A stretch of DNA of 64,000 nucleotides from NCBI GenBank assembly GCA_019056805.1, contig DXJG01000002.1:154178-218177 (forward strand), read 5' to 3'. The number at the start of each line of letters is the position of its first letter. Position 1 is the first letter of the stretch. The position numbers and the translations under genes are program-made. Under the pieces are notes generated by a model. That model saw only the letters and a list, made by a program, of their open reading frames with translations. It searched no databases and was not told the DNA's origin. This DNA is from Candidatus Baldrarchaeota archaeon (GTDB lineage Archaea; Asgardarchaeota; Baldrarchaeia; Baldrarchaeales; DXJG01). This document shows, in pieces, positions 3,039 to 43,629 of the stretch.

Positions 3039-5801
3039 TTAATCAGTAGATAAGGATTCTATCTTTGCAATTATCGTTTGAAAAATTTTCTGCAATACTT
3101 TATCCAGATATTGGACTTTAGGACCTCCGCCAATTACTATTTTTCCCTTTCCTCCAGCAGATCCTCCAAGTTCTTTACAACCTTCCCTGACTATATTTGG
3201 TAGTTCAGTTTCGAGAATCTCTTTCGTGGCTCCAACAATTATGGCTCTATCGGTTCCTCCGCCTAATACTACTATGCAATTAGGCTCTTGTTTAATTATT
3301 TTTTCAGCTATCGAGATTAGATCTTTCTCGTTTAGGTTTATTCTCCTTACCACTACCTTATATTTTCCTACAGTCTCCGCCTCTTTGATTATTCTTTCTG
3401 CTATCATTGTTGAAAGCTGATTTCGTAGTCTTTCTATTTCTTTATTCAGTTCCTTCCATTCTTTGAAGAACCTCTCTGCTGTCTTCGGTAATTGTATCTG
3501 TGGTACTCGAAAGACGTTGGCAGTTTTTTCTAGTAATTCTTCTTGTTGTTGTATTTGCTGAACAGCAGCTAGTCCTGCACAGAATTCTATCCTGACAACT
3601 CCATCTTGAATCCTTTCTACTCTAATTATCTTAATAGGTCCTACTTCTCCAGTATTTTGGCAATGTAGTCCTCCACAAGCTTCAACATCCCAGTCCTTTA
3701 TTTCGATTATTCTAATATCTTTCCCTGGTACCACTCCTCCTTGATAGATTCTGAATCCATATTTTTGTTCTGCTTCGTTTCTGGGCATCCAAAAGATATG
3801 TACTGGGCGATTTTCCATAACTATTTTATTTGCCAATAATTCTATTTTTCTAACTTCATCTGTTGATAGCGATTTATAGTGAGTTATATCTAATCTTGCT
3901 CTATCCGGCCGTTTCTCCGCACCAGCTTGCCATACATGTTTCCCTAATACGCGTCTAGCCGCTTCGTTAATTATGTGGGTTGCTGTATGATGACGCATTA
4001 AAGATATTCTATGTTCTAAATCTACTTTCCCCTCAACTTTTTGTCCTTCATTTAACGTAGTTTGACCTTTTATTTCATGTACAATTACATGATTAACTTT
4101 TTGAACATTTATAACTCTATTTCCATTTATTTCTCCAATGTCGTGAAGCTGTCCTCCTCCCGTAGGGTAAAAACACGTCCTATTCAGCACTATATACTTG
4201 TTTTGAATTACTTTCAATACTTTTGCTTCGAAGGCAGTTTTCCACGGGTCTTCGTAGTATAATTCCTCTGTTGGAGGAAGTGATTCGGTTTGTTGTTTTA
4301 AATAGTCTTCGATACGTTTTTGCGGCTTTTCTCTTTTTTCTCTTTTTTCTCCAATTGTTGCGTAGAAGTCTGTTGGAATTTCTATTTGTAAGCCAAGCGT
4401 TTTTCCGATGTCCTGAACCATTTCTGGTTGTATACCTTTTGATTCATAAAGTGTTATAAGAGTGTCCTTATCGAGTTTCTTCTTCTTTGTTAGTAGACGT
4501 TTAACGTATGCCTCTCCTCTCTTTAATGCTTCATAATATCTCTGTTTTTCGATTTTAAATATATCATCTATTATATCTTCTGCTTCTAAAACCCTCTCGT
4601 AGGTTTTCTTTAAATAATCAATATGTCTGTGAAACAATTCTAGAAAATCTATGTTAAAGTTATAAAGATCATTTAGGCTTAATGCTCTTCTCAAAATTGT
4701 ACGTAAATTGTAGCCACCACCCACATTAGATGGCAATGCTCCATCTGCTATAGCGAAAATTAGGGCACGTGTATGATCTGCTATAGCGTAGAGAGCTTCT
4801 AATGGTTCTAATTCTCTTTTTAATTCCTCATAACTCGTTCTAAGTTGTTCAGCTATCTGTTTTCTAACAGCATCTATGTTTGTTATTTCGCTTACATCTA
4901 ACATTCCCATATAGGTTACATAGTTTTTCAGCAATTTTTCATCTATCTTTAAGTCAACTTGCGACTTTAACCATTCGAGAACTGGTCCAAAAACTGCTTC
5001 ATATGCGGTAGGAGTTCCTTGACTAAACCAGCAAATTCTTTCTATTCCCCATCCAACATCTATTACTCTGATCTTCATTTCTCGGTATGTTCCATCTGGT
5101 TGTACCTCATATTGCATAAAAACATTATTTACAATCTCGAGTCCTTTCGCAAAGGCCTCAAGGCATGGCCCAAAGTTTCCCCCTCCAATCCAAACATCTT
5201 CCCGGTATGTTATATCTTCTGGGGGAATTTTAAGCTCTTCCGTTAGAAACTTGAAGTTTAGCTCTATACAATGATCCATCCAATAACCTTTCCATTTATC
5301 CGAATTAAAAGCGTGCTGTCCACCCATTACAAAAAGAGAGAAGTGCCGACCAGTTCTTCCAACATTATCTACATCATTAAACCCTTTTCCTCCAAATCTC
5401 AAACATGGTTGTGGAACAACAAGTGGGTTTGCTGGAGGATCAACTATTCCGCTCACTACCCAAGGCTGAAAGTCCGCAATCGAAGCTATAGTAAATGTTA
5501 AGTCGTCTCTCCAACGTGCAACAACAGGATACTCCTTGATTCTTGTATGTCCATGTCTTTCAAAAAAATTACACCAGCGTTCAATAGTTTCGTGGTAATC
5601 CCAGTTACCTTTTTGTTCACCGATGAATTTATACCCATTTTCGCATGCAGGGTCTCCACATGTATCTCTATCGGGGTTTAGAGTCCAGAAAAAACCTCCA
5701 CATTTAGGACATCGCTTTCTTACAAATTCTTTTTCCTTAAACAAACTTACTCTGTACTTCTCTTCAGTTAGTATATCCTTCAACTGAGATTTATTGATCA
5801 A
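3039..5801 (-). CDS. alaS: Alanyl-tRNA synthetase (archaeal type)
   Basis: 920 aa with class II AlaRS catalytic and editing motifs (HxxxH..CGG region: HHTATHII, CGGLHC) and a C-terminal DHHA1-like tail. Confidence 0.9.
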   Translation of the reverse strand: MINKSQLKDILTEEKYRVSLFKEKEFVRKRCPKCGGFFWTLNPDRDTCGDPACENGYKFIGEQKGNWDYHETIERWCNFFERHGHTRIKEYPVVARWRDDLTFTIASIADFQPWVVSGIVDPPANPLVVPQPCLRFGGKGFNDVDNVGRTGRHFSLFVMGGQHAFNSDKWKGYWMDHCIELNFKFLTEELKIPPEDITYREDVWIGGGNFGPCLEAFAKGLEIVNNVFMQYEVQPDGTYREMKIRVIDVGWGIERICWFSQGTPTAYEAVFGPVLEWLKSQVDLKIDEKLLKNYVTYMGMLDVSEITNIDAVRKQIAEQLRTSYEELKRELEPLEALYAIADHTRALIFAIADGALPSNVGGGYNLRTILRRALSLNDLYNFNIDFLELFHRHIDYLKKTYERVLEAEDIIDDIFKIEKQRYYEALKRGEAYVKRLLTKKKKLDKDTLITLYESKGIQPEMVQDIGKTLGLQIEIPTDFYATIGEKREKREKPQKRIEDYLKQQTESLPPTEELYYEDPWKTAFEAKVLKVIQNKYIVLNRTCFYPTGGGQLHDIGEINGNRVINVQKVNHVIVHEIKGQTTLNEGQKVEGKVDLEHRISLMRHHTATHIINEAARRVLGKHVWQAGAEKRPDRARLDITHYKSLSTDEVRKIELLANKIVMENRPVHIFWMPRNEAEQKYGFRIYQGGVVPGKDIRIIEIKDWDVEACGGLHCQNTGEVGPIKIIRVERIQDGVVRIEFCAGLAAVQQIQQQEELLEKTANVFRVPQIQLPKTAERFFKEWKELNKEIERLRNQLSTMIAERIIKEAETVGKYKVVVRRINLNEKDLISIAEKIIKQEPNCIVVLGGGTDRAIIVGATKEILETELPNIVREGCKELGGSAGGKGKIVIGGGPKVQYLDKVLQKIFQTIIAKIESLSTD

Positions 5802-7510: not shown

Positions 7511-8977
7511 TTAACCCTTGGTAACTCCCATTGGAACCATTCTTGCTACGAGAGTAGCAATACCTAGTTTGTGACTAACTTTAACAACTCTGTCAATATC
7601 TTTATATGCACCTGGAGCTTCTTCTGCAACTACCCTGATATTTGCAGCTCTAATTAATATTCCTCTTTGCTCCAAATCCTTTTTCACTGTAGAACCCCAA
7701 TAACGTCGAGTGGCAGCAGCTCGTGATAAGTGTCGCCCTGCACCATGGGCAGTACTGCCAAAAGAGATCTTCATAGCCTGTTTTGCTCCAATTAGCAAAT
7801 AACTAGCAGTACCCATACTTCCGGGAATCAGTACGGGTTGACCCATGCTTCTATAGTCAGCAGGAATATCTTTGTGTCCCGGTGGAAACGCCCTAGTAGC
7901 ACCTTTTCTATGAACAAATACTTTAACCTTCTTTCCATCGACATCATGTTCCTCTAATTTCGCTATATTATGGGCTACATCATAAATCAAATGTAAATCT
8001 AAGTCTTCAGCATCTTTTCTGAATATTTTTTGAAGAGCTTCTCTTGTCCAATGAGTTATTAGTTGTCTATTTGCCCAAGCAAAATTAGCTGCGCACTGCA
8101 TTGCTTGAAAATATTGTTCAGCTTCTTTGCTATTTGCTGGTGCACATGCCAATTCTCTATCTGGTAGTTTTATTCCATACTGGTGTACTGCTCTTTCCAT
8201 AACTCTGAGATAATCAGAACATACCTGGTGACCAAAACCTCTAGAACCTGTATGAATCATAACAGTTACTTGTCCTTCTTCATATATACCAAGTTTCTTG
8301 GCTACTTGAGGATTATAAATCTTATCTACATACTGTATTTCGAGGAAATGGTTTCCACTTCCTAGAGTTCCAAGTTGTGGTCGTCCTCTTTGTTTAGCTC
8401 TTGAAGATACTACATCTGGATTCGCATTCGGCATTGCCCCTTCTTCTTCGCAATGTTTCCAATCCTCATCCCAACCATATCCCTGTTCAACAGCCCATTT
8501 TGCACCACCTTGCATTGCTTCATCCAGTTCGGCAGTTGATAGCCTTAACTTTCCAGTGCTTCCCACTCCGCTAGGAATATTTCTGAATAAAGCTTCCAGA
8601 AGTTGAGGTAAGATTTTACGTACCTCATCTTTTTTCAAATTTGTTCTTAGTAATCTTACACCACAATTAATGTCGTAACCCACTCCACCTGGTGAAATTA
8701 CACCTGTTTCTAAATCACTTGCCGCTACTCCCCCTATTGGGAATCCGTATCCTTGATGTCCATCCGGAAGAACTATGCTATACTTGTAGACTCCCGGAAG
8801 ACATGCAATGTTTGCTGCTTGTTCTAATGTTAAATCTGTTCTCATTTTTTCTAGTAAAAATTCATCTGCATAAATTCTCGCTGGTACACGCATGCAATTC
8901 TTGTAAGTTCGTGGTATTTCCCATACGAATTCATCTATCTTTTCGATAGGCCCTCTATAACCCATTTTTTTCACCAT
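7511..8977 (-). CDS. rtcB: RNA-splicing ligase RtcB (3'-phosphate/5'-hydroxyl tRNA ligase)
   Basis: RtcB motifs (GSGNHF, metal-binding His/Cys). The ORF extends to 9061, but the start was adjusted to MVKKMGYRGPIEKID by comparison with the family N-terminus. Confidence 0.85.
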   Translation of the reverse strand: MVKKMGYRGPIEKIDEFVWEIPRTYKNCMRVPARIYADEFLLEKMRTDLTLEQAANIACLPGVYKYSIVLPDGHQGYGFPIGGVAASDLETGVISPGGVGYDINCGVRLLRTNLKKDEVRKILPQLLEALFRNIPSGVGSTGKLRLSTAELDEAMQGGAKWAVEQGYGWDEDWKHCEEEGAMPNANPDVVSSRAKQRGRPQLGTLGSGNHFLEIQYVDKIYNPQVAKKLGIYEEGQVTVMIHTGSRGFGHQVCSDYLRVMERAVHQYGIKLPDRELACAPANSKEAEQYFQAMQCAANFAWANRQLITHWTREALQKIFRKDAEDLDLHLIYDVAHNIAKLEEHDVDGKKVKVFVHRKGATRAFPPGHKDIPADYRSMGQPVLIPGSMGTASYLLIGAKQAMKISFGSTAHGAGRHLSRAAATRRYWGSTVKKDLEQRGILIRAANIRVVAEEAPGAYKDIDRVVKVSHKLGIATLVARMVPMGVTKG

Positions 8978-9208
8978 GTTTAGGGAGACTTTCAAAATTT
9001 TTAAGTGTTTTTGGTACATGAGCATGAATTTTGGTGTCTTATACCAAAATATTAGGTCCACTTACCGAGAAAATGAAGTCTTAACTAACTTGAGAACAAT
9101 GTTCTACGATGTTCATAATAACTCTTTAAAGAACTTAAAATCAAGGTATCAATTTGAAGTTATTTCTTTGTATTATGACAAAAGTGATATTAGTATGACA
9201 AAGAAAGT

Positions 9209-17393: not shown

Positions 17394-18065
17394 GTGATGC
17401 GTAAAGCCACAGCAGAAACATATATCAAAAAACTGCTAAAAACTGAAAATGGGAAAAAAATAGGAGAAATATTACGAGAACAATACGAAAAATGGAAACG
17501 GACTCTTGAGTTAAAGGACTTTCACCACTTCATTCAGCTAATATGGAAGAAATATGAAAAAGAAATTATGAAAATACTTAAAGGAGAAATACAACTCATT
17601 GGACAATTCAGAGCGTTTGCTTTCGAAGAATATGTTCATGATCTTATCCTAAGAAAAACAAATCTAAAAAATCTCGGTCTAGATGTATTTTGGAACGAGC
17701 CAATAGAGGTTTGGCGGGGAATCATAATAGATCAAGGAAAAATAGTAGAAGAAACCTACACCACACAATTTGATCTAACAATAGGCAAGAGACAGGAAAA
17801 TAAAACAATAATACCATTAATTGTAATAGAAACAAAGGTAGATGTAGATGCTCCAAGACTAAAAGCAGTCATGGCTAACTTTTCTCTCCTAAAAACATTG
17901 AATCCCTCCGTGTCTTGCATGTTAATATACGTAAATTGGAACGCGAAAAAAACACTAAAACACATAGCAAAAGCGGTAATAAACAACATATACCAATTCA
18001 ATCCTGAAGAAAAAGATGAAACACAAAAATTCATTCAAGACATAAACAATTACTTAACAATCTAA
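17394..18065 (+). CDS. Hypothetical protein (possible PD-(D/E)xK-like core; very tentative)
   Basis: ORF. The segment IPLIVIETKVD resembles an E-x-K nuclease motif. No further support. Confidence 0.35.
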   Translation: MMRKATAETYIKKLLKTENGKKIGEILREQYEKWKRTLELKDFHHFIQLIWKKYEKEIMKILKGEIQLIGQFRAFAFEEYVHDLILRKTNLKNLGLDVFWNEPIEVWRGIIIDQGKIVEETYTTQFDLTIGKRQENKTIIPLIVIETKVDVDAPRLKAVMANFSLLKTLNPSVSCMLIYVNWNAKKTLKHIAKAVINNIYQFNPEEKDETQKFIQDINNYLTI

Positions 18066-18272: not shown

Positions 18273-19643
18273 TTGATGGTGCTTTGGATGTCAGAACTAA
18301 AGTTACCTAAAAGATACGAGTACATAGTTTCTGTTTTATCTAGGGTTGAAAGGAGAAGAATTCCTCTCAAATCTGGGTTGGAAGATATTTTTTCAGAAGA
18401 ATCTGTGGATTGGAGAGTTCGTAGCACCGTTACTGCTCATGTACTTGGAATTTTACGCAACTTTAGATTGATTGACCAAGCTATTAATTTAACCTTGAAA
18501 AAAGGATCTATTCATATGTTTAAACCTGAACTTAAGAATATTTTGAGAGTTGCAGTTTACGATATTCATATTAGACGAGCAGTCCCAGCTAAAACCGCAA
18601 CTATGGTTGCGGTTAATTTAGCAAAGAAGATGCTTGGTGATAGCATTGCTCGTTTAGTTAATGCATTATTAAGGCAGATAGAGAATTTTGAAATAGAAAA
18701 GGTTTTGGAGAGAGAAGATAAAGCTGAGGTTTTGGCGTTAAAATATTCTCATCCTACTTGGTTTGTCCGCTATATAATCGAACTATTGGGCGAAGAAGAG
18801 GCTATAAAACTTCTAAGTACAAACAACTCTCCTGCACCAGTTTGGCTACGTGTAAACACATTAAAAACAGAAAGAGATAGGTTAATAAAGGTTTTAGAAA
18901 GAGAAGGTACGAAAGTTACCCTGGACTCTGATCTTCCAGATGTACTCAAGGTTATTGAAAGTAGAAAACCACCAGTTAGATTATCTAGTTTTTCTAAGGG
19001 CCTTTTCTATATTCAAGATAAAGCTTCCGTGCTTGCAGGACATGTCTTAAACCCTAAACCTGGTGAACTTATTGTTGACGTGTGTGCAGCTCCAGGTGGC
19101 AAAACTTCACATATTGCTCAGTTGATGGAAAATGAAGGTAAAATTATAGCAATTGACATATCGAGGCTTAGAATAAGAGCTCTTAAAAATAACATGAAAA
19201 GACTTGGTGTAAAAATTGTAGAAACCAAAGTTATGGATGCAAGAAAAATTCCCGAAAAACTTAAGGTAGAAGCTGATCGCGTAATTGTTGACCCGAGCTG
19301 TTCTTCTACTGGAAACTTCCGTTCCAGGCCTGAAGTCAGATTATGGATTAAAAAGAAAGATGTTAAACGATTTGCTAAGCTTCAATGGGAGATATTAAAC
19401 GCAGCGGCGGAAATTGTAAAGGAGGGCGGAACACTGATGTATTCTACTTGTTCTTTAACATTAGAGGAAAATGAACATTTAATTAAAAGATTTTTAGACG
19501 AGAAGAATACATTTAAGATTACTAAAGCAGAACCCTTTATCGGAAATCCCGGATTCAGCGATTTAACAGATACACAAAGACTTTTCCCACATATACACGA
19601 TACAGAAGGATTCTTCATAGCTAAACTTATTAAAATGGGATAA
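18273..19643 (+). CDS. NOL1/NOP2/Sun family RNA cytosine-C5 methyltransferase with N-terminal NusB-like domain
   Basis: SAM motif DVCAAPGGKT, and the catalytic Cys motifs DPSCSSTG and MYSTCS. Confidence 0.85.
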   Translation: MMVLWMSELKLPKRYEYIVSVLSRVERRRIPLKSGLEDIFSEESVDWRVRSTVTAHVLGILRNFRLIDQAINLTLKKGSIHMFKPELKNILRVAVYDIHIRRAVPAKTATMVAVNLAKKMLGDSIARLVNALLRQIENFEIEKVLEREDKAEVLALKYSHPTWFVRYIIELLGEEEAIKLLSTNNSPAPVWLRVNTLKTERDRLIKVLEREGTKVTLDSDLPDVLKVIESRKPPVRLSSFSKGLFYIQDKASVLAGHVLNPKPGELIVDVCAAPGGKTSHIAQLMENEGKIIAIDISRLRIRALKNNMKRLGVKIVETKVMDARKIPEKLKVEADRVIVDPSCSSTGNFRSRPEVRLWIKKKDVKRFAKLQWEILNAAAEIVKEGGTLMYSTCSLTLEENEHLIKRFLDEKNTFKITKAEPFIGNPGFSDLTDTQRLFPHIHDTEGFFIAKLIKMG

Positions 19644-20343: not shown

Positions 20344-20442
20344 TGCTCAGTCCTCAATTATTAGTTCTTTGAACTCTTAGAAAAATTTATTTTTGGATTT
20401 TGTGGTTTTAAGCTGGAACATGGGTGGCCGTGAATATGACCT

Positions 20443-22899
20443 TTGCACTTGAATTTAAGGACTGTGGGGGTGGTATTGGTGGCCACGGCTACCGACGAAG
20501 GAAAAGTTGAAATTAAAACGTGTTCTGAAAAATTTTTAAACGGTCTTGAGAAAATATCTGAACTTGCTATTAAAACTGCGATACAAAATAACCATAGAAG
20601 AATGTTTGTTTTTTGTGGAAGCGACATAAGAAGAATTGATGCCGCTTATAAGGTTTTTTCAAAATTTATTGAAATTAAAGGCAACATGCAAGTAAGAGTA
20701 CTTTACGTTGCAGTGGAGGTTTCTTCTGGAAAAGATAAAGAATTATATACGGAGTTTAAATCAAGAATAGAGAAGAATTTCAAGGACGTTGAAATTAATG
20801 GAATCAGTTTTAAAGATACAGATAACGTTATGGGTCAAACTTTTGACGTGTTAGTTTTAGATTTAAATAGAGACCTAAACCCCAACGATCTTGGTCGATT
20901 AATTGAAACCGTTAGCGGTGGAGGCATTATAATAGCAATAACTCCTCCAATGGATAAATGGTTAGTTTTGAAAACACGATTTCACAAGAAACTTATAACC
21001 CCCCCTTGGACGATTGACGATATTCCCGGTAGGTTTAACAAGAGATTCATAAGGAAACTAAAGGAGCATAAGGGAATTTACATTTTCGACGTAGACGAAG
21101 AAATTGCTTTAAAAGTTATTAAGGAAGAAGTTTCTGATAAAGGTAGGATAACCATAAGTATTCCTGAAGAACATCTGCTACCAAGAGAAGTTTATGAATT
21201 AGCTTTAACCCAAGGACAAGTTAGAGCTTTAAAAGTAATGGAAAGGTTCTTAGTAAGAAAGGAGAAAAAACCAGCTATTGTCATGATCGCCGATAGGGGT
21301 CGAGGAAAGAGCGCTGTCGTTGGGATAGCTATAGCCGCGATAGCACATGAGTTAAAGAAAATTTTTTCCTCAGGTAAAGTTTCTGTTCTTGTAACTTCTC
21401 CACAAATAGGAAATGTCAGGACACTTTTCGAGTTTGCCGTCAGGACGCTTAAAAGATTAGGTTATTCACCACAAGTAAAGAAGCGAGACTACGATATTGA
21501 GGAAGTAAGGGCTTCAGGTATCAAAATTTTTTATGAACCTCCATGGGAGGCAATTGAACGAAAAGCTGACATCACTGCCGTAGATGAAGCTGCTGGCATA
21601 CCAATTCCCTTACTTTTCCGATTCTTAAAAAGAGCTAAAAGAATTATTTATTCTTCCACTATTCATGGATATGAAGGAGCTGGCAGAGGTTTCTCTATAA
21701 GATTTCTGGGCGGATTAAGAGAAATTAAAAATATAGAGGTTAACATGGTTGAATTAGAAGAACCCATCCGATATAGTGACGGAGATCCCATTGAACAATG
21801 GCTCTATGATGCTCTTCTTCTTGACGCAGAACCAGCTCAACTTTCAGTAAGAGATATTAAACAAATCAAAAATATGCAAGTCGTATTTAAGAAAGCCGAT
21901 TTAGACAAGTGGTTTATTAACGGTAATGAGAAAAAACTGAGACAATTTATTGGCATTTATGTATATGCCCACTATAGAAACCAACCAAAAGATGTAGCTC
22001 TTTTAGCAGATGCACCTCATCATGAAGCCTTCATGCTTGAGACTAAAAACGGGAAAATTGTTAACGCTATCCAAGTAGCCTTGGAAGGAGGATTACCTGA
22101 CGAAGTCATAAAGGAGATTTATAGCGGATTTGAACCAGATGGAAACATAATACCAACAATTGTGGAGAAACATTTCCGAGATACTGAATTTCCAAAACTC
22201 AAAGGATATAGAATTGTTAGAATCGCAACACATCCGCAAGTTATGAGCATGGGACTAGGAAGTGAAGGGTTGTCAAAACTTTGCCAAGAAGCCGAAAAGA
22301 GAGGACTAGATTGGGTTGGAGCTGGTTTCGGCGCAACACCAGAACTCCTCCGCTTCTGGATAAAAAATGGTTTTATTCCAGTGCATGTTAGCCCAAGGAG
22401 AAATCCCATTAGCGGAGAATATTCTACAATAGTAATAAAACCTCTTTCTAAGAAAGCAAAAGAAATTACTAAGTTTATCTTTAAAGAATTTAAAATGAAG
22501 TTTGTTGAGTGGTTAAGAGACATACATTACGACATGGAACCTGAAATAGCCATGTACATCCTTAATTCAAAATTAGAAGATATATCAGAAAGACTTTACG
22601 AGTTAAAGCTAACAGAAAGTCAACAAAAGCGACTCGAAGCATACGTTAAAGGAGTATTATACTATGAAGTTGTCTGTGATGTAATTCGTGAATTGGTAAA
22701 AATGTACTTTTTAGATCATACTTCAGAGAGAACAAAACTTTCTGAGGGAAAAACATTGTTGCTTATCCTAAAGAGTTTACAAGCAAGAAGCTGGAAACAA
22801 ACTCTGGATGTTATTAATTTAGAGCCTGCAGCAGCATATACAATGTTTAGAGCGGCAATAAAGAAACTATACAAAGCTTACATCGGGAAAATAGACTAA
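20443..22899 (+). CDS. tmcA: tRNA(Met) cytidine acetyltransferase TmcA (Kre33/NAT10 homolog): helicase-like ATPase plus GNAT
   Basis: Walker A motif DRGRGKSA, the DEAA segment, and a C-terminal GNAT and tRNA-binding region. 818 aa. The exact start is uncertain. Confidence 0.8.
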   Translation: MHLNLRTVGVVLVATATDEGKVEIKTCSEKFLNGLEKISELAIKTAIQNNHRRMFVFCGSDIRRIDAAYKVFSKFIEIKGNMQVRVLYVAVEVSSGKDKELYTEFKSRIEKNFKDVEINGISFKDTDNVMGQTFDVLVLDLNRDLNPNDLGRLIETVSGGGIIIAITPPMDKWLVLKTRFHKKLITPPWTIDDIPGRFNKRFIRKLKEHKGIYIFDVDEEIALKVIKEEVSDKGRITISIPEEHLLPREVYELALTQGQVRALKVMERFLVRKEKKPAIVMIADRGRGKSAVVGIAIAAIAHELKKIFSSGKVSVLVTSPQIGNVRTLFEFAVRTLKRLGYSPQVKKRDYDIEEVRASGIKIFYEPPWEAIERKADITAVDEAAGIPIPLLFRFLKRAKRIIYSSTIHGYEGAGRGFSIRFLGGLREIKNIEVNMVELEEPIRYSDGDPIEQWLYDALLLDAEPAQLSVRDIKQIKNMQVVFKKADLDKWFINGNEKKLRQFIGIYVYAHYRNQPKDVALLADAPHHEAFMLETKNGKIVNAIQVALEGGLPDEVIKEIYSGFEPDGNIIPTIVEKHFRDTEFPKLKGYRIVRIATHPQVMSMGLGSEGLSKLCQEAEKRGLDWVGAGFGATPELLRFWIKNGFIPVHVSPRRNPISGEYSTIVIKPLSKKAKEITKFIFKEFKMKFVEWLRDIHYDMEPEIAMYILNSKLEDISERLYELKLTESQQKRLEAYVKGVLYYEVVCDVIRELVKMYFLDHTSERTKLSEGKTLLLILKSLQARSWKQTLDVINLEPAAAYTMFRAAIKKLYKAYIGKID

Positions 22900-22904
22900 T
22901 CAAG

Positions 22905-23531
22905 GTGATATCGTTGCCTAAAAAATTTAGAAAACATATATTTTTCGACGGAAAATATGCCGATAAAATTCTAAAAGGTGAGAAAACATCAACAATTAGG
23001 GTGGGAAAATATTCGATAAAAAAGGGACGAAGTTTTTATGTCCACGCTCGAGGACACGTACTCGGTAAAGCAGTTGTAACAGATGTTCAAATAAAAAAAT
23101 TAAATGAACTTACTGATAAAGATGCAAAAAGAGACGGTTTTAAAAACAAAAAAGAACTTTTAAAAGCTTTAAAAAAACATTACGGAAAACTCGATAAGGA
23201 TACCCCTGTAACAATCATAGAGTTCAAAATACAAGATAAATTTAAGGAAGAAGTAACTTCCTCTGATTTTGCATATGGTGGGTATAAAGCGACAGAGATA
23301 GCAAAACTTGCACTTACTCATAATGTTAACTTGTCCGAAAAAGAAAGAGAAATACTCAAAACACTTCTAAATACTGGTAGTATTAGAAAAACCGCGAGAC
23401 AAATTGGTAATTTAAACAAACGATTTATGATCAGAAAAATCTTAAAGAAAGTCTTCAGCAACCTAGTTAAAGAGGGAATTATATCACCAAAAATTAAAAG
23501 CTACTACGAAGAAAATAATAAAGAAACTTAA
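22905..23531 (+). CDS. ASCH (PUA-like) domain protein with C-terminal helical/HTH-like extension
   Basis: N-terminal ASCH signature (FFDGKYADKILKGEKTSTIR...). Only 5 nt downstream of tmcA. Confidence 0.65.
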   Translation: MISLPKKFRKHIFFDGKYADKILKGEKTSTIRVGKYSIKKGRSFYVHARGHVLGKAVVTDVQIKKLNELTDKDAKRDGFKNKKELLKALKKHYGKLDKDTPVTIIEFKIQDKFKEEVTSSDFAYGGYKATEIAKLALTHNVNLSEKEREILKTLLNTGSIRKTARQIGNLNKRFMIRKILKKVFSNLVKEGIISPKIKSYYEENNKET

Positions 23532-23556: not shown

Positions 23557-24459
23557 ATGTCCATAAGAGAACCAGCAGCCATAGGTTTTTATCCCTTAGA
23601 CCCTCAAGAAACGTTAAAAGTGATAGAAGAATCTTATTTAAGCAAACACGGCCCTGGATCCTTACCAAAGGTTAACAAAAACGGAGAAAGAAGAATAGTT
23701 GCAGGGATAGTTCCTCATGCAGGATACCTCTATTCAGGACCTGTAGCAGCGCATTTTTACTATGAACTTGCAAAAGACGGCGAACCCGAAGTTTTTATCC
23801 TCCTCGGTCCAAGTCACACTGGTTACCCAGGCGTTGGAATAATGACAGAAGGCATCTGGAAAACTTCTTTAGGAGAAATATCAATAGATGAAACTCTCTC
23901 GAATACTATTTTAAATAATTGTGACCTAATACTTGATGCCCCCGAGGCACATGAAGGCGAACATAGCTTAGAAGTTCAACTTCCATTTCTTCAACACCTC
24001 TATGACGCAAAATTCAAGATCGTACCTATAGCAATAGGCATGACAGACTTTGAATCTTGCCAAGATGTAGGAATAGCAATAGCAAAAGCTATAAAAACGA
24101 GTAATAAGGATGCTGTAATAATAGCCAGCACAGACATGACACACTACGGCACCTACTATGGATACACACCAGCTGGTGTTGAACCATTAACCAAAGTTTT
24201 AGAATGGATATACCAGACGGACAAACAAGTTATTGAGAGAATTAAAAGATTAGATGGAGCAGGAGTAATAGAATATGTTTTTGACCAAGGCTTAACAATG
24301 TGTGGTTTTGCTCCAGTAGCGACAATGATAGAAGCCATTAGAAACCTCGGAAAAATTGAACCAAAAGTATTAAAATATGAAACAAGCTTTGGTATTCGAG
24401 GAGGAGATGCTACAGCAATAGTGGGATATTTAGCGATGGCTTTTTATAGGGCAGTTTGA
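23557..24459 (+). CDS. Memo1-like (AmmeMemoRadiSam system protein B family) protein
   Basis: PHAGYLYSG motif and a conserved His/Asp pattern of the MEMO family. Confidence 0.7.
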   Translation: MSIREPAAIGFYPLDPQETLKVIEESYLSKHGPGSLPKVNKNGERRIVAGIVPHAGYLYSGPVAAHFYYELAKDGEPEVFILLGPSHTGYPGVGIMTEGIWKTSLGEISIDETLSNTILNNCDLILDAPEAHEGEHSLEVQLPFLQHLYDAKFKIVPIAIGMTDFESCQDVGIAIAKAIKTSNKDAVIIASTDMTHYGTYYGYTPAGVEPLTKVLEWIYQTDKQVIERIKRLDGAGVIEYVFDQGLTMCGFAPVATMIEAIRNLGKIEPKVLKYETSFGIRGGDATAIVGYLAMAFYRAV

Positions 24460-24534: not shown

Positions 24535-24984
24535 GTGAATGAGGTGATGTTATTGACTGAAAAGTTCATTCCAATTGTTAAATCGCCATCTTGGAAACAC
24601 GGCACAAGAAAAGGGAAAGGATTTAGCATCGGTGAGATTAAAGCAGCCGAGATAGATATTAGTATGGCAGTTAAACTCGGTATACCCATTGATAAAAGAA
24701 GAAAAACCGTACATGAAGAAAATGTTGAAACCTTAAAAAACTACTACCGCGAATTTGCAAAAGAACTAGGGACGACTTCACTTCCTAAAGTTGACAAAAA
24801 AATAATAGAAGAGTTAACTAAAGTTCCTGGTATAAACATTCATGTTGCACGAATACTTGCCAAAAAAGCTTCAATATCTTCCATAGAAGACCTTATAAAC
24901 AGTGATATCAATGAATTATCAAAGAAAACAGGTTATTCGAAAAACAGAATCAAAAAATGGATTTCAGCTGCAAAAGGGGAATAA
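24535..24984 (+). CDS. Ribosomal protein L13e-like protein with C-terminal HhH-like tail
   Basis: The segment GKGFSIGEIKAAEI resembles the conserved L13e motif (G-FSLGELKAAGI). Confidence 0.5.
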   Translation: MNEVMLLTEKFIPIVKSPSWKHGTRKGKGFSIGEIKAAEIDISMAVKLGIPIDKRRKTVHEENVETLKNYYREFAKELGTTSLPKVDKKIIEELTKVPGINIHVARILAKKASISSIEDLINSDINELSKKTGYSKNRIKKWISAAKGE

Positions 24985-38634: not shown

Positions 38635-41600
38635 TTGAAAGCGATGTTTAAGCATGCTTGCCCGAATTGTGAAGGTAAAATTTCTGATGAAAGATTAGCT
38701 ATGGGAGTACCATGCGAAAACTGTCTGTCTATAGATATTAATCAACTAAAAAACCTATGTTCAAAAATGAATCCCTTGGAATTTAAAATAAAAATTCTGG
38801 ACATTTTAAGGGCTCAAGGAACACTAAAAAAGTATTATGAACTTGTTAAAATCGAAAAAGAATTGGCCGAGTTTGAAGATTTATTTAGAAAGGGAACTGG
38901 AAGCAGGCTTTGGAGTGCACAGCGAGAGTGGGCAAGAAGAGTCTTAAAAGGGGTAAGCTTTGCCATAACCGCTCCCACGGGCATAGGTAAAACAGTATTT
39001 GGAATGACTATGGCCATATATCTAAGCACTAAAGGCAAAAAATCCTATATTATTCTCCCCACAACAGTACTTGTTAAGCAGACACTAGATAGAATCAAAG
39101 AGTTTTTAGAAAAAACAGGAATTCAAATTAAGGTTGCTGGTTATTACGCCAAACTTTCCAAGGATGAAAGAGAAGAATTTAAGCATATGGTTGAAACTGG
39201 AGACTTTAATATACTTGTTACAACTTCACAATATCTTGCATTAAAATTTGACGAAGTATCAAAACATAAATTCGATTTTGTATTCGTTGACGATGTAGAT
39301 GCGCTCCTTAAGTTATCAAAAAACATCGATAGAGTTTTGTTACTATTAGGGTTCAGCAACGAAGCTATTAATCTAAGTTTAAGATTAATAAAATTAAAGA
39401 AAGCGTATGTACGAGCAAGAGCAAATGAAATAGATAAAATAGAACACGAAATAGAAGAAATAACAGAAAAAATAAATTCTCTAAAAGAAAAAACAAAGCC
39501 GGGAACATTAATAGTCTCCACTGCAACTGGTAAAGCAAGAGGCGATCGAGTGAAGTTGTTTAGAGAGTTGTTAAACTTTACAATCGGGTCAGCAAGTGAA
39601 GGTTACAGAAACGTTCAAGACCTTTATATTCCAAGAGAAAGAAACGTAGAAGAACAGTTACATGCATTAGTTAAAAAACTAGGAGCAGGTGGAATTATCT
39701 TTGTCACACTCGAAGAAGGAATAGATTTTGCTGAAAAAATCGCCAATTTTCTAAATGAAAGGGGAGTTAAAGCTGAAGCTTTCCACGCAGGCAAGAAAAG
39801 CCCTGAAATCATAGATCAGTTTTCTAATGGTGAAATAGACATACTTATTGGGGTTGCAAGTCATTATGGACTTTTAGTCAGAGGTCTTGATCTACCACAT
39901 CGCGTACGCTACGCTATTTTCACCGGGGTTCCAAAATTCAAATTCAGCTTAGATGTTAGCGAAGAAACCAGTCCAACAAGAATATACATGCTTCTATCCG
40001 AAATATCAGAATACTTACCCAGCGAGGAAAAAGAAAAAGCCGAAAACTTTCTCAGGAAAATCAGACAATACTTAATGAGACTAACACCAACACAGTTACA
40101 ACAAATTAGAGATGCACTAACTGCCAAAACAAAAATAAATAATACATATCTTCAAAACATCTTAGACCTCTATGTCAACGTCATAAATTTTGTTGATTCC
40201 ATGCTTAAAAGAAAAGACATTCTTGATAAGATAAGAGAAAGTCCATTTATATCTCTAGAAAAAATAGACGAAGAACTCTATATACTAATACCAGATGTAA
40301 GAACCTACATTCAAGCTTCGGGAAGAACATCGAGATTATTTGCAGGAGGAGTAGCTAAAGGGATTTCAATACTCCTAGTAGATAATGAAAAGATCTTCAA
40401 CGGTCTTGTAAGGCAACTAAGATGGAGATTCGAAGAAAGCGAATGGAAACATCTAAACGAAGTAGACCTAACTTCGCTACTTAAAGAAGTCGATGCCGAC
40501 AGAGAACTTATTTTAAAAATTAAACGAGGAGAAATAACGATAGAATTAAAAGACCCAGTAAAATCAGCACTTCTCATAGTAGAATCTCCAAGTAAAGCAT
40601 TTACTATTTCCACATTTTTCGGCAAACCAGCAAGAAGAAGATTACATGGATTACCAGTCTACGAAGTTGTAACTGGAGATTTAGACTTAAACGTAGCTGC
40701 AAGCGGAGGTCATATTTTTGATCTAGTTACTGAAGAAGGGTTCCACGGTGTGATGACCGAAAACGGGGTTTTCATACCAATATATACAACAATAAAAAGA
40801 TGTATGACATGCAGAGAACAATTTGTAGAAGATGTAGACAGGTGTCCACGATGTAAATCCACAGAAATAAAAAACTCCCTAGATAATGTAAAAGCACTAA
40901 GCGAAATAGCCTCTGAAGTAGATATAATCCTTATAGGAACCGATCCAGATTCTGTTACGGGAGATTCAGAAGTTTTGGTGAATTTAAATGGAAAAGTATT
41001 CCTATCTAGGATCGACGAACTATTTGAAAGATTAAAGAGTTCAAAAGAATTTTACTTTTTCACTAAGAGAAATCATGAATATCTTGAACCAAAAGATAAT
41101 AGTTATTTAAAAGTATTAGGAGTTGATAAGCACTTTGACACTCGATGGGTAAATGTAAATTATTTCATTAGGCATAAAGTTCAAAAAGAAATTTATGAAA
41201 TCGAAACAGCAACAGGCAGAAGTATAAAAGTGACTGGAGACCACTCCTTATTTACACTTAAAGATTTCCAGCTTCAAGAACTTAAAATAAGCGAAATTAA
41301 AATCGGAGATATGTTAGTAGTTCCACGAAGACTGGTATGTAATGAAAATAGTCTTGAATATATTGACATTTTAGATTTTAAAGACTTAGGTGCGAAAAAA
41401 GTAGACGAAAAACATGTTAAGATTGGAAAAAGTAAACCTATACCAAGATACATAAAGCTTGATAAAATTTTTCTCGAGTTTCTCGGTCTATGGATAGGTG
41501 ATGGTTCATTCCACAAAGATAGATATGTACGCATTTCTGTCATTGATAAAGAGTCAAGAAAAGTTGTAAAGGAAATAGCTAAGAGATTCGGAGCAAAGAT

Positions 41601-43629
41601 ATATGAAGAAAAGGACAATGCAACACTTACAATAATGTCAAGGGCTCTTTACCTTATTTTAAAGAAAGTTTTCGGTTTAAAGCATGGTGCAGGTTCAAAA
41701 GAAGTTCCATCTATAATTTTTTCTCTTTCTAAAGAACAAATATCAGCTTTTCTAAGAGGATACATCAGTGCTGATGGTACTGTGTCTAAAGGAGAACCTA
41801 ATTTTTCAACAAAATCCAAAAAACTCTTTGAACAACTTAGAACGCTATTTCTAATGTTAGGAATTGTGGTTAAAAAATACGAAGATAACGGGGTTCTTAG
41901 AGGATTTATCCATGCAGAGTGGATATCCGATTTCATAAATAAAATTGGCTTTCTTCAGGAAAGTAAAAATAGTAAGATAACTCCTAAGAAAGGAATAAGG
42001 AATTACATAGATGTATTTCCCGTGGAAGGGTTAAAAGGATGCATTAAGACGAATCCCAGTTATGCAGAGGCAATATATAGATCTGGGATAATGGGAAGAC
42101 GGAGATTGGAGAACTTTTTGCCATTTATAAAAAATGAAACATTGAAAGAGACTGTTAAAAGCGTTCTAAATTCGGATATTATGGTCGAAAAAGTTGTTAA
42201 AATTAGAAAAATAGAAAAATTTAATGATTATGTTTATGATTTTGATACGGAAACTGATAACTTTATAGCAAACAATATTCTCGCCCATAATACCGAGGGG
42301 GAGAAAATTGGTTGGGATATAGCTACTGTCTTATCACCGTATGCGCACCAAATTAAACGTGTAGAATTTCATGAAATAACAAAAATGGCGATTAGGAATG
42401 CGCTTGAAAATCTTAAAGAAATAGATGAAAACAGAGTATCAGCACAACTGGTACGTAGAATAGAGGATAGATGGATAGGTTTCGAGTTAAGTAGACGTCT
42501 TTGGCAAAGATTTCGGGATTATCATCTCTCTGCAGGCAGAGTTCAGACCCCGGTTTTAGGTTGGATAATAGAAAGATATAAGGAATTTCTAAAAAGTTGG
42601 AAATATGTTTTCTGGGTGAAGCTATCAAATCAATACATAGTGGAGCTCAGAGATCTTGGGGGAAAGCCTTACGAGATTGCTGAGAAACTTCGCGGTTCAG
42701 ATGTTAAAATTATATTCCTTGAGGAAACTTTAGAAGATTTGAATCCACCTCCACCATTTACAACTGATGAAATGTTGAGAGAAGCATCAAGACTCTTAAA
42801 ATTCGGTGCACAAGAAACTATGATTCTTGCACAAGCGCTTTTCGAATCCGGTCTAATAACTTACCATAGAACGGATAGTCACCGAGTAAGTAATGTAGGA
42901 ATAAGAATCGCTAAGGAATACATAACTCAAGAAATTGGTGAAGAGTATTTTCATGCAAGAAAATGGGGAACAGAGGAAGAAGGAGCTCATGAATGTATCC
43001 GTCCAACACGTCCACTAAACGTGGAAAGACTAAGAACTCTAATAGAGGAAGGAGTAATAAAAACAGCAGAAACAATGACATGGCAACACTACAAACTATA
43101 TCAACTCATATTCAACAGATTTATTGCAAGCCAAATGACACCTGCGAAAATAAAAAGAATGAAGGCAAAAATAAAGTTCAATGAAATAGTTGAGACTGAA
43201 ATAGAAGGAATTACAGAAATAGTTGAACCAGGATTTACAACGATACAACCAATAAAAACGATACCCAAATTAAAAGAACCACTAAGCGTAGTTGATGTTA
43301 AATTCAAAAAAATACCAACAATAAGTCTTTATACGCAAGGAGATATTGTTGAACTCATGAAAAAGAGAGGAATAGGAAGACCATCTACGTATGCAACAAT
43401 AATACAAACATTACTTGAAAGAGGTTATGTAGAAGAGAAAAACAAAATGTTAAAACCTACAAAACTGGGAATCAAAGTATACGAGTACCTATCAAAATTT
43501 TACAGCAACTTAGTATCAGAAGAAAGAACTAGAGAACTGGAAAGAAAAATGGAAGAAATAGAAGAAGGAAAGGTAAATCATCAACAAATCTTAAAGGATC
43601 TCTACCAGGAAATAAAAAGTCTCAAATGA
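38635..43629 (+). CDS. rgy: Reverse gyrase (helicase plus topoisomerase IA) carrying an intein
   Basis: N-terminal Zn finger, SF2 helicase motifs (APTGIGKT, DDVD), the TOPRIM motif TDPD//TEGEKI split by an insert, and topo IA domains. 1664 aa total, 1217 aa without the insert. Confidence 0.9.
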   Translation: MKAMFKHACPNCEGKISDERLAMGVPCENCLSIDINQLKNLCSKMNPLEFKIKILDILRAQGTLKKYYELVKIEKELAEFEDLFRKGTGSRLWSAQREWARRVLKGVSFAITAPTGIGKTVFGMTMAIYLSTKGKKSYIILPTTVLVKQTLDRIKEFLEKTGIQIKVAGYYAKLSKDEREEFKHMVETGDFNILVTTSQYLALKFDEVSKHKFDFVFVDDVDALLKLSKNIDRVLLLLGFSNEAINLSLRLIKLKKAYVRARANEIDKIEHEIEEITEKINSLKEKTKPGTLIVSTATGKARGDRVKLFRELLNFTIGSASEGYRNVQDLYIPRERNVEEQLHALVKKLGAGGIIFVTLEEGIDFAEKIANFLNERGVKAEAFHAGKKSPEIIDQFSNGEIDILIGVASHYGLLVRGLDLPHRVRYAIFTGVPKFKFSLDVSEETSPTRIYMLLSEISEYLPSEEKEKAENFLRKIRQYLMRLTPTQLQQIRDALTAKTKINNTYLQNILDLYVNVINFVDSMLKRKDILDKIRESPFISLEKIDEELYILIPDVRTYIQASGRTSRLFAGGVAKGISILLVDNEKIFNGLVRQLRWRFEESEWKHLNEVDLTSLLKEVDADRELILKIKRGEITIELKDPVKSALLIVESPSKAFTISTFFGKPARRRLHGLPVYEVVTGDLDLNVAASGGHIFDLVTEEGFHGVMTENGVFIPIYTTIKRCMTCREQFVEDVDRCPRCKSTEIKNSLDNVKALSEIASEVDIILIGTDPDSVTGDSEVLVNLNGKVFLSRIDELFERLKSSKEFYFFTKRNHEYLEPKDNSYLKVLGVDKHFDTRWVNVNYFIRHKVQKEIYEIETATGRSIKVTGDHSLFTLKDFQLQELKISEIKIGDMLVVPRRLVCNENSLEYIDILDFKDLGAKKVDEKHVKIGKSKPIPRYIKLDKIFLEFLGLWIGDGSFHKDRYVRISVIDKESRKVVKEIAKRFGAKIYEEKDNATLTIMSRALYLILKKVFGLKHGAGSKEVPSIIFSLSKEQISAFLRGYISADGTVSKGEPNFSTKSKKLFEQLRTLFLMLGIVVKKYEDNGVLRGFIHAEWISDFINKIGFLQESKNSKITPKKGIRNYIDVFPVEGLKGCIKTNPSYAEAIYRSGIMGRRRLENFLPFIKNETLKETVKSVLNSDIMVEKVVKIRKIEKFNDYVYDFDTETDNFIANNILAHNTEGEKIGWDIATVLSPYAHQIKRVEFHEITKMAIRNALENLKEIDENRVSAQLVRRIEDRWIGFELSRRLWQRFRDYHLSAGRVQTPVLGWIIERYKEFLKSWKYVFWVKLSNQYIVELRDLGGKPYEIAEKLRGSDVKIIFLEETLEDLNPPPPFTTDEMLREASRLLKFGAQETMILAQALFESGLITYHRTDSHRVSNVGIRIAKEYITQEIGEEYFHARKWGTEEEGAHECIRPTRPLNVERLRTLIEEGVIKTAETMTWQHYKLYQLIFNRFIASQMTPAKIKRMKAKIKFNEIVETEIEGITEIVEPGFTTIQPIKTIPKLKEPLSVVDVKFKKIPTISLYTQGDIVELMKKRGIGRPSTYATIIQTLLERGYVEEKNKMLKPTKLGIKVYEYLSKFYSNLVSEERTRELERKMEEIEEGKVNHQQILKDLYQEIKSLK
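40951..42291 (+). mobile_element. Intein (447 aa) with LAGLIDADG homing endonuclease domain inside the reverse gyrase TOPRIM motif
   Basis: Begins with Ser after TDPD and ends with HN before TEGEKI. Contains LAGLIDADG motifs LGLWIGDGSF and LRGYISADGTVS. Confidence 0.8.

Follow-up and report, generated by a model that had tools for sequence, protein, structure and literature searches.

In Escherichia coli, the ASCH protein YqfB hydrolyses free N4-acetylcytidine (ac4C) with a kcat/Km of up to 2.8e6 M-1 s-1, using Lys21 as base, Thr24 as nucleophile, Glu74 as acid and Arg26 as oxyanion hole, with contributions from Tyr89 and His70 (PMC6972931). In archaea, the biochemistry of ASCH proteins and of their AAAD_HTH domains (HTH, helix-turn-helix) has been established by Statkeviciute et al. 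(bioRxiv 10.64898/2026.02.27.708502), who do not mention gene linkage. All the archaeal ASCH proteins that they tested took ac4C off intact transfer RNA (tRNA) in vitro, and the AAAD_HTH domains of Afu3ASCH and Pku4ASCH proved both required and sufficient for binding tRNA; on the DNA substrates tested, no binding of these HTH domains was detected. Afu2ASCH was among the most active of these enzymes: it fully hydrolysed free ac4C within 4 h, brought the ac4C of E. coli tRNA to among the lowest levels, and removed ac4C12 from the tRNA D-stem (bioRxiv 10.64898/2026.02.27.708502). An August 2026 preprint on human EOLA1 (bioRxiv 10.64898/2026.08.01.741249) reports YqfB-clade ASCH genes in operons with TmcA/Nat10, takes this arrangement as an ASCH protein acting on the ac4C made by the acetyltransferase, and favours salvage of the free nucleotide. 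It describes free-ac4C salvage in human cells, where ac4C in structured RNA is protected, and is silent on archaea, Asgard lineages and HTH fusions. The operon of TmcA and a YqfB-clade ASCH protein is, then, already known. Here, we describe an archaeal version of it in a stretch of 64,000 nucleotides (the window) from contig DXJG01000002.1 of a Candidatus Baldrarchaeota archaeon. In this window, the gene of the ac4C writer TmcA is directly followed by a gene for an ASCH protein that carries an AAAD_HTH-family domain. We lean, on balance, towards the reading that these genes form a two-gene ac4C writer/remover cassette in which the HTH-bearing ASCH protein removes ac4C embedded in tRNA. The novelty is modest and lies in a Baldrarchaeia case, a two-domain ASCH protein encoded right behind tmcA, the range of archaea in which the two genes are linked, and the probable linkage of Afu2ASCH.

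The features of the pair are as follows (residues in the 208-amino-acid (aa) numbering):

20443..22899, + strand: tmcA, RNA cytidine N4-acetyltransferase (TmcA/NAT10/Kre33 family), the ac4C writer; open reading frame (ORF) of 818 aa with four Pfam domains.
22900..22913, + strand: junction of the two genes; the gap is 5 nt with GTG 22905 as the ASCH start and 14 nt with TTG 22914.
22905..23531, + strand: ASCH-HTH gene, predicted ac4C amidohydrolase with a tRNA-binding domain; 208 aa from GTG 22905.
22941..23234, + strand: ASCH beta-barrel domain of the YqfB/GKTR clade, residues 13-110.
22977..23000, + strand: octapeptide GEKTSTIR, residues 25-32, aligned to YqfB K21/T24/R26.
23133..23135, + strand: Asp77, at the aligned position of the YqfB catalytic acid Glu74, within an invariant D-G-F motif.
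23181..23183, + strand: Tyr93, aligned with YqfB Tyr89 (substrate positioning).
23250..23489, + strand: C-terminal AAAD_HTH-family domain, matched at E=1.5e-29 by a hidden Markov model (HMM) of two-domain proteins from outside Baldrarchaeia.

A first-pass annotation of this DNA had proposed an 818-aa TmcA/Kre33-like ORF followed, after a 5-nt gap, by a 208-aa ASCH ORF, and both genes do lie on the + strand where it placed them. The tmcA product contains the Pfam domains TmcA_N (2e-49), NAT10_TcmA_helicase (2e-54), GNAT_acetyltr_2 (4e-45) and tRNA_bind_2 (2e-12), all above their cutoffs, and it matches the NCBIfam TmcA model with E=5e-158. On the NCBIfam equivalog NF041296, which was trained on Halobacteria, it scores 527 bits for a cutoff of 700; because this model is lineage-specific, the shortfall is no argument against membership of the wider TmcA family. 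Moreover, the Walker-A motif RGRGKS and the motif HGYEGAGRG are invariant when the window protein is aligned with other archaeal TmcAs (10 sequences in all). The true start of tmcA is probably TTG 20476, since a 100%-identical TmcA in the database is called at 807 aa. The gene ends with the TAA at 22897-22899, 5 nt before GTG 22905. For the ASCH gene, TTG 22914 (205 aa, 14-nt gap) appears more likely than GTG 22905, because the homologues of the window protein are mostly 201-205 aa long and a Shine-Dalgarno-like GGTGAT (22904-22909) lies 4 nt before this TTG. Whichever start holds, the two genes as read here are tightly coupled and their junction leaves no room for a separate ASCH promoter. 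This spacing, together with the overlapping junctions of other lineages described below, suggests that tmcA and the ASCH gene are co-transcribed.

The assignment of the N-terminal domain to the ASCH family, also proposed in the first-pass annotation, is borne out by profile and by fold. Pfam ASCH (PF04266) matches residues 13-109 with E=9.5e-20 and 71.7 bits (cutoff 21.2), over 100 of the 103 profile positions. In the AlphaFold2 model of the protein, the predicted local distance difference test (pLDDT) value is 85.5 overall and ~88-94 over the ASCH domain. When this model is compared with the PDB using Foldseek, the best match is E. coli YqfB (9kyf/9kyh, ac4C complex included), with E=1e-6, a target-normalised template modelling score of 0.80, a root-mean-square deviation of 2.1 A and 29% identity. 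The top 16 PDB matches are all ASCH or ASCH-like (DUF984) proteins, and the domain adopts their PUA-like beta-barrel fold. Among all PDB sequences, a profile built from the protein and its close relatives matches YqfB only, end to end and weakly (E~1e-3).

The active site of YqfB is found in the window protein. Indeed, Lys27, Thr30 and Arg32 of the octapeptide align with the base (K21), the nucleophile (T24) and the oxyanion hole residue (R26) of YqfB. We aligned the catalytic columns of 141 sequences, comprising the tmcA-linked ASCH proteins, the two-domain representatives, the short representatives and YqfB. The octapeptide Lys, Thr and Arg are invariant in all 19 tmcA-linked short ASCH proteins (19/19) and present in at least 56 of 58 sequences of each representative set; the Asp77 column holds Asp or Glu in 100% of the 141 sequences, and the Tyr93 column holds Tyr in ~98%. 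With the candidate YqfB-like catalytic set (Lys/Thr/Arg/acid/Tyr) complete and YqfB as the best fold match, the earlier suggestion of a YqfB-like ac4C amidohydrolase stands, and ac4C deacetylation in vitro has been shown for close members of the family (bioRxiv 10.64898/2026.02.27.708502). By its octapeptide, GEKTSTIR, the window ASCH domain is assigned to the GK[T/S]R class of YqfB type and not to the GKER class of ZmASCH, TRIP4 and EOLA1. The first residue of this octapeptide varies: it is Gly in the window protein and in P0001 (GEKTSTIR), Glu in the other close Baldrarchaeia homologues (P0002-P0008, EEKTSTIR) and, in two proteins of Archaeoglobaceae, Arg. The GKTR motif can therefore do without its "G".

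The C-terminal domain is absent from the description given in the first-pass annotation. It is helical (residues ~116-195, pLDDT 85.9 in a model of the domain, with a core above 90) and has no match among Pfam families. An exhaustive profile search of 1.84 billion representatives returned 1,066 relatives; among the best 150 of these 1,066, dozens of proteins of 175-211 aa match across both domains, and nearly all carry GxKxxTxR. The HMM of the C-terminal domain, built without any Baldrarchaeia sequence, matches residues 113-192 of the window protein (205-aa form) with E=1.5e-29. Full-length profile matches extend to P0133 (Pku4ASCH-like) and P0158 (Afu3ASCH-like). The termini of Pku4ASCH (MKNLKFDG...) and Afu3ASCH (MKHLEF...KRGLI), as derived from the published primers, fit family representatives, and through them P0133 would correspond to Pku4ASCH and P0158 to Afu3ASCH. 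Judged by these profile matches, the membership of the C-terminal domain in the ASCH-HTH (AAAD_HTH) family is solid, and the HTH fold label is suggestive. Its core is strongly basic, with 13 Lys/Arg versus 4 Asp/Glu and an isoelectric point of 11.1.

We also considered whether AAAD_HTH is homologous to the C-terminal tRNA-binding tail of TmcA, and this is unsupported (hhalign probability 1.9%, E=0.026). The sole hhalign match, which is non-significant, pairs the HTH core LSEKEREILKTLLNTGSIRKTARQIG (23331..23462) with the extreme C-terminus of TmcA LSEGKTLLLILKSLQARSWKQTLDVIN (22710..22850, i.e., residues ~755-801 of the 807-aa form), and a Foldseek search with the C-terminal domain found no TmcA or NAT10 structure. 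One TmcA homologue, P0108, has a Pfam Sigma70_r4_2 annotation. That TmcA and the ASCH-HTH protein may share a tRNA-recognition module is a hint only.

The conservation of the pair was surveyed in 80 archaeal tmcA loci, one per GTDB species, which were retrieved by TmcA motifs (HGYEGAGRG pattern). All the ORFs of these loci were scanned with the ASCH HMM, and 78 loci offered enough downstream sequence. Of these 78, 20 have an ASCH gene directly 3' of tmcA and in the same orientation, and the distance from the stop of tmcA to the ASCH start is mostly -4 to -47 nt. Such junctions, in which the genes overlap by 4-47 nt, point to translational coupling. The pair is present in Bathyarchaeia (7 loci), Archaeoglobaceae (6), Archaeoglobi-like metagenome-assembled genomes (MAGs; 2), Nezhaarchaeales (2), Methanomethylicota (1) and Aenigmatarchaeota (2), thus in about six lineages. 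The sampled tmcA loci of Thermococcales, Thermofilaceae, Desulfurococcales, Pyrodictiaceae, Njordarchaeota and Helarchaeota are without it, and in those of Thermococcales there is no ASCH gene within 6 kb. Besides the linked copies, only two ASCH matches occur in the ~720 kb of flanking DNA, which sets the background at ~0.25%. The probability of the adjacency arising by chance is ~1e-34 in a naive calculation and ~6e-10 when only six independent lineages are counted. Moreover, the flanking genes are essentially unshared between the lineages that bear the pair, the exceptions being Nezhaarchaeales with Methanomethylicota and the Archaeoglobi with their look-alikes. Hence the adjacency that the first-pass annotation had asked to see in related genomes is kept, and it is the tmcA-ASCH pair itself that is the conserved unit, adjacent far more often than by chance.

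The same arrangement occurs in four Baldrarchaeia loci (L001, L002, L004 and L005) in addition to the 20 survey loci. L004 and L005 belong to a second Baldrarchaeia lineage, in which TmcA is 48% identical, the ASCH gene overlaps tmcA by 20 nt and all the other neighbours differ. Their linked ASCH protein (192 aa) has only the ASCH domain (39% identity) in common with the window protein: we looked for the C-terminal domain of the window protein in it and found no match, either with the non-circular C-terminal HMM or by BLASTP. These two loci have two ASCH genes within ~2 kb of tmcA:

3832..4221, - strand (L004/L005): short ASCH gene, 129 aa, upstream of tmcA.
8477..9055, + strand (L004/L005): tmcA-coupled ASCH gene, 192 aa; the last 80 residues of its product have no match to the AAAD_HTH HMM or to any Pfam family.

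We rejected one candidate, the Undinarchaeota locus L018, as a tmcA/ASCH-HTH operon: the two-domain gene is 2 kb from tmcA, and three genes on the opposite strand stand between the two. At L006 (Njordarchaeales), an ORF at 8894..9097, in a 900-bp uncalled gap after tmcA, encodes "GGFEPPTSG"; since this is a typical signature of tRNA-gene read-through, a tRNA gene probably adjoins tmcA there.

Outside Baldrarchaeia, every tmcA-linked ASCH protein (20/20) is of the short, single-domain form of 103-120 aa, the one of L059 being cut at 67 aa by the end of its contig. The linked proteins of Archaeoglobaceae (MERINFD...HFEVVKS) fit the primer-derived termini of Afu2ASCH (MERINL...FEVVK). Because of these termini, and because its orthologues in six other Archaeoglobaceae species are in this position, Afu2ASCH is probably a member of the tmcA-linked orthologue group. 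Conversely, the five two-domain ASCH-HTH genes that we checked in other lineages are all unlinked to tmcA (5/5): they stand after a T2SSF gene, a radical-SAM gene or a threonyl-tRNA synthetase gene, or among unrelated genes. L003, the homologue with 43% identity that an initial search turned up, is unlinked to tmcA. Two of these contexts are close ones. At L089 (3252..5594), a two-domain gene follows the threonyl-tRNA synthetase gene directly, with a 27-nt gap, and in Geoglobus (L088, 3859..5534) it overlaps a MoaA-like radical-SAM gene by 4 nt; the HTH-bearing proteins may have further functional partners here. When ASCH domains are compared by distance, those of short linked and of two-domain proteins intermix, and that of the window protein is marginally nearer to the two-domain ones. 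The simplest reading of these sequences is that the archaeal proteins form one YqfB-type clade, within which the HTH domain was gained or lost. On this view, Baldrarchaeia would stand out by having an extended form of ASCH in the tmcA-linked slot.

From these elements, a mechanism can be proposed. TmcA would acetylate tRNA and ribosomal RNA cytidines with acetyl-CoA and ATP, and the translationally coupled gene would supply the YqfB-clade ASCH amidohydrolase. In this enzyme, Lys27 would activate Thr30, which would attack the N4-acetyl carbonyl; Arg32 would stabilise the oxyanion and Asp77 would serve as acid, giving cytidine and acetate. The basic AAAD_HTH domain would tether the enzyme to tRNA, and with such a tether the two-domain form most likely removes the acetyl group from ac4C within tRNA. 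The ASCH-HTH protein would thus be an eraser or a proofreader of TmcA output, and perhaps would act on free ac4C too. The present data show the structure of the genes, the domains and families of their products, the conserved catalytic residues and the cross-phylum conservation of the pair. We infer the activity of the window protein, its in vivo substrate and the co-transcription of the two genes; the ac4C/tRNA deacetylase activity and the tRNA binding of the HTH domain are carried over by analogy from published relatives. That the downstream gene encodes an ac4C amidohydrolase acting on the product of TmcA, be it as eraser or as salvage enzyme, is very probable. For the HTH-bearing version, tRNA-embedded ac4C is a more likely substrate than free ac4C only. 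Action at the RNA level is favoured because the protein has a tRNA-binding domain and its relatives deacetylate tRNA in vitro.

Several observations weigh against this preference. Deletion of yqfB in E. coli left tRNA ac4C unchanged (bioRxiv 10.64898/2026.02.27.708502), and the narrow ASCH pocket is described in the EOLA1 preprint as preferring mononucleotides (bioRxiv 10.64898/2026.08.01.741249). The window protein, as judged from its sequence, shares clade and active site with YqfB without being its orthologue, since it reaches 15 bits for a cutoff of 93 on the NCBIfam YqfB equivalog NF003443 and has two domains in 205-208 aa versus a single domain of ~103 aa. YqfB Asp27 and His70, which are 100% conserved among close YqfB relatives (PMC6972931), are not kept, Val33 and Asp73 standing in their place; the H70A substitution cuts YqfB activity only ~tenfold (PMC6972931). 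The HTH fold draws no statistical support from our fold and profile searches, in which the HTH-like matches of the C-terminal domain (sigma-H, sigma-B, FixJ, RcsB, DesR) are non-significant. The short form of all 20 linked ASCH proteins outside Baldrarchaeia also counts here, as linked enzymes without an RNA-binding domain fit free-nucleoside salvage better. Finally, it would seem futile to co-express a writer with an RNA-level eraser that is neither selective nor regulated.

Erasure could be taken one step further. The linked deacetylase of Baldrarchaeia may have gained its tRNA-binding HTH domain and formed a writer-editor pair with TmcA on tRNA, a proposal that we hold to be rather unlikely. 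TmcA would acetylate CCG-type sites broadly, and the tethered ASCH protein would deacetylate particular tRNAs or positions, setting the site specificity of ac4C or its temperature-dependent level. The two proteins might even form a TmcA-ASCH complex and recognise the same tRNA element via related C-terminal helices. If true, the closest archaeal relatives of eukaryotes would possess a genuine RNA-level ac4C eraser whose gene is firmly tied to that of its writer.

The strongest rival to tRNA erasure is salvage. The ASCH protein would deacetylate only the free ac4C nucleoside or nucleotide released from degraded, heavily acetylated RNA, so that cytidine re-enters salvage; the linkage to tmcA would match the clean-up to the ac4C output, with the HTH domain doing no more than keeping the enzyme close to RNA. 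This account involves no futile cycle, agrees with the established activity of YqfB on free ac4C (PMC6972931) and with the way in which the EOLA1 preprint reads the operon of TmcA and YqfB-clade ASCH (bioRxiv 10.64898/2026.08.01.741249), and suits the absence of an RNA-binding module from the linked proteins outside Baldrarchaeia. It has to contend with the AAAD_HTH domain of the window protein, a tight tRNA binder in relatives, and with the finding that the archaeal ASCH proteins tested, including the apparently tmcA-linked Afu2ASCH, deacetylate intact tRNA, which Afu2ASCH does even in the D-stem. Weighing both sides, we regard salvage as possible and clearly less probable than erasure in tRNA. 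It nevertheless bears on the idea, put forward in the first-pass annotation, of a compact ac4C regulatory module: the writer/remover pair is upheld, and "regulatory" is only a possible description of it, free-ac4C salvage being a serious contender (bioRxiv 10.64898/2026.08.01.741249).

Much further behind comes a non-catalytic role, in which the ASCH protein would be a reader or adaptor that delivers substrate to TmcA or helps product release. THUMPD1/Tan1 is such a small RNA-binding partner of the ac4C writer NAT10/Kre33, and eukaryotic NAT10 needs an adaptor for tRNA. The likeness to the ASCH-HTH protein goes no further: the THUMP fold is unrelated to ASCH, is non-catalytic, and promotes acetylation rather than its reversal. 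The tight translational coupling, suggestive of stoichiometric co-production, the predicted RNA-binding domain and the faint, non-significant likeness of the HTH core to the C-terminal helices of TmcA would all suit an adaptor. Yet the Lys/Thr/Arg/acid/Tyr set is invariant across all tmcA-linked ASCH proteins, which argues for selection for catalysis; moreover, the relatives are active enzymes and the short linked forms have no RNA-binding domain. We hold such an adaptor to be quite improbable.

We give marginally less credit still to a one-component regulator, whose ASCH domain would sense free ac4C or acyl-cytidines and whose HTH domain would bind DNA at tmcA or other genes. Such regulators typically consist of a ligand-binding domain with an HTH behind it. 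The fold and profile searches of the C-terminal domain gave only weak, non-significant matches, enriched for sigma70-region-4/LuxR-type HTH, and its weakly closest neighbours are DNA-binding HTHs of sigma70-region-4/LuxR/LysR type; in addition, Pku2ASCH binds DNA weakly (bioRxiv 10.64898/2026.02.27.708502). Against this, the HTH domains of Afu3ASCH and Pku4ASCH bound tRNA and not the tested DNA substrates (bioRxiv 10.64898/2026.02.27.708502), the catalytic residues are kept, and the unrelated contexts of all five two-domain homologues reveal no consistent target operon. Lastly, a coincidental adjacency, with the ASCH protein acting elsewhere, for instance as an RNase like ZmASCH (a single-stranded RNA ribonuclease of GKER type, cited in bioRxiv 10.64898/2026.02.27.708502), could appeal to the functional diversity of ASCH domains and to the unlinked homologue L003, but it is effectively refuted, as gene order, strand and overlap are conserved in about six lineages whose flanking genes are unrelated, and the octapeptide is of the YqfB GKTR type, so that its probability is close to negligible.

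The remaining features of the window concern the surroundings of the pair and the organism:

17394..18065, + strand: ORF of 223 aa without significant Pfam match, kept in L001 beside the RNA-modification gene cluster.
18273..19643, + strand: RsmB/NOP2-type RNA 5-methylcytidine methyltransferase that also has a NusB domain; tmcA follows ~0.8 kb further on.
20381..20394, + strand: A/T-rich TATA-box-like element AAAAATTTATTTTT upstream of tmcA, read from the sequence.
23557..24459, + strand: Memo-like/AmmeMemoRadiSam protein B gene, 25 nt downstream of ASCH-HTH.
24535..24984, + strand: L13e fragment (residues 8-72) fused to a C-terminal HHH_5, 149 aa (Pfam); the same fusion occurs in L001 and L002.
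38635..43629, + strand: reverse gyrase, 1664 aa (zf_Rg, DEAD helicase, Toprim and Topoisom_bac; Pfam).
57030..59129, - strand: ORF of 699 aa without Pfam match at E<=1e-5.

The closest homologues of TmcA and of the ASCH-HTH protein (82-100% identity) come from MAGs labelled Candidatus Baldrarchaeia, an Asgard class. These MAGs have in common with the window the gene order RsmB-like methyltransferase, KH (opposite strand), TmcA, ASCH, Memo and L13e. The element AAAAATTTATTTTT is a possible archaeal promoter of the tmcA-ASCH operon. A scan for promoters of sigma-70 type, whose models are uninformative for archaea, and for terminators gave counts no higher than the shuffle expectation. The Memo gene is possibly co-transcribed with the pair in the window lineage, and it is not part of the conserved pair. 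We also considered a tie between ASCH-HTH and AmmeMemoRadiSam, which we rejected: the radical-SAM protein of Geoglobus is not of that type, and the adjacency to Memo is found only in the window lineage (L001/L002). Homologues of the RsmB/NOP2-type enzyme lie just downstream of tmcA-ASCH in Archaeoglobi-like loci (L060, 8904..10280; L054, 13693..14226), and there may be a loose cluster of RNA cytosine-modification genes around the pair. Reverse gyrase is a hallmark of hyperthermophiles. Since the window encodes it, the premise of the first-pass annotation, namely a source organism that is a (hyper)thermophile, is a reasonable one. An intein with a LAGLIDADG homing endonuclease interrupts this reverse gyrase at ~residues 792-1219.

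The reversibility of ac4C is contested, one 2026 preprint calling ASCH proteins tRNA "erasers" and another presenting them as recyclers of free ac4C only. For ac4C reversal in vivo, the main clue at hand is that writer and remover genes are linked. This linkage is widespread in archaea, where roughly a quarter of the sampled species-level tmcA loci, in about six lineages, have it, and the tRNA-binding domain of the linked enzyme of Baldrarchaeia is hard to explain by nucleoside salvage alone. We thereby offer specific proteins and lineages for telling erasure from salvage, and no new kind of system.

Indeed, each of the known systems resembles the window pair in part. With E. coli YqfB (PDB 9KYF/9KYH/1TE7), the window protein shares the ASCH beta-barrel, the GxKTxTIR octapeptide and the Lys/Thr/Arg, acid and Tyr positions, whereas YqfB is a single domain of 103 aa without an RNA-binding module, its acid being Glu74 in place of Asp77. 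In E. coli, yqfB presumably does not adjoin tmcA. With Afu3ASCH (O28463) and Pku4ASCH (A0A127B833), it shares the two-domain architecture, a similar length and the GKTR octapeptide; their identity is only ~37-45%, and the two-domain homologues found elsewhere (Geoglobus, Thermoprotei and others) are not adjacent to tmcA. The short tmcA-linked ASCH genes of other archaea have the same order, strand, tight coupling, ASCH clade and catalytic residues, but encode proteins of 103-120 aa without the HTH domain. Human EOLA1, a weak structural match in Foldseek (5y7d, E=6e-3), has the ASCH fold, the octapeptide Lys and Arg and an activity on ac4C in common with the window protein, but it belongs to the TRIP4-like GKER clade, has Glu for Thr, and is reported to act on free ac4C and not on cellular RNA (bioRxiv 10.64898/2026.08.01.741249).

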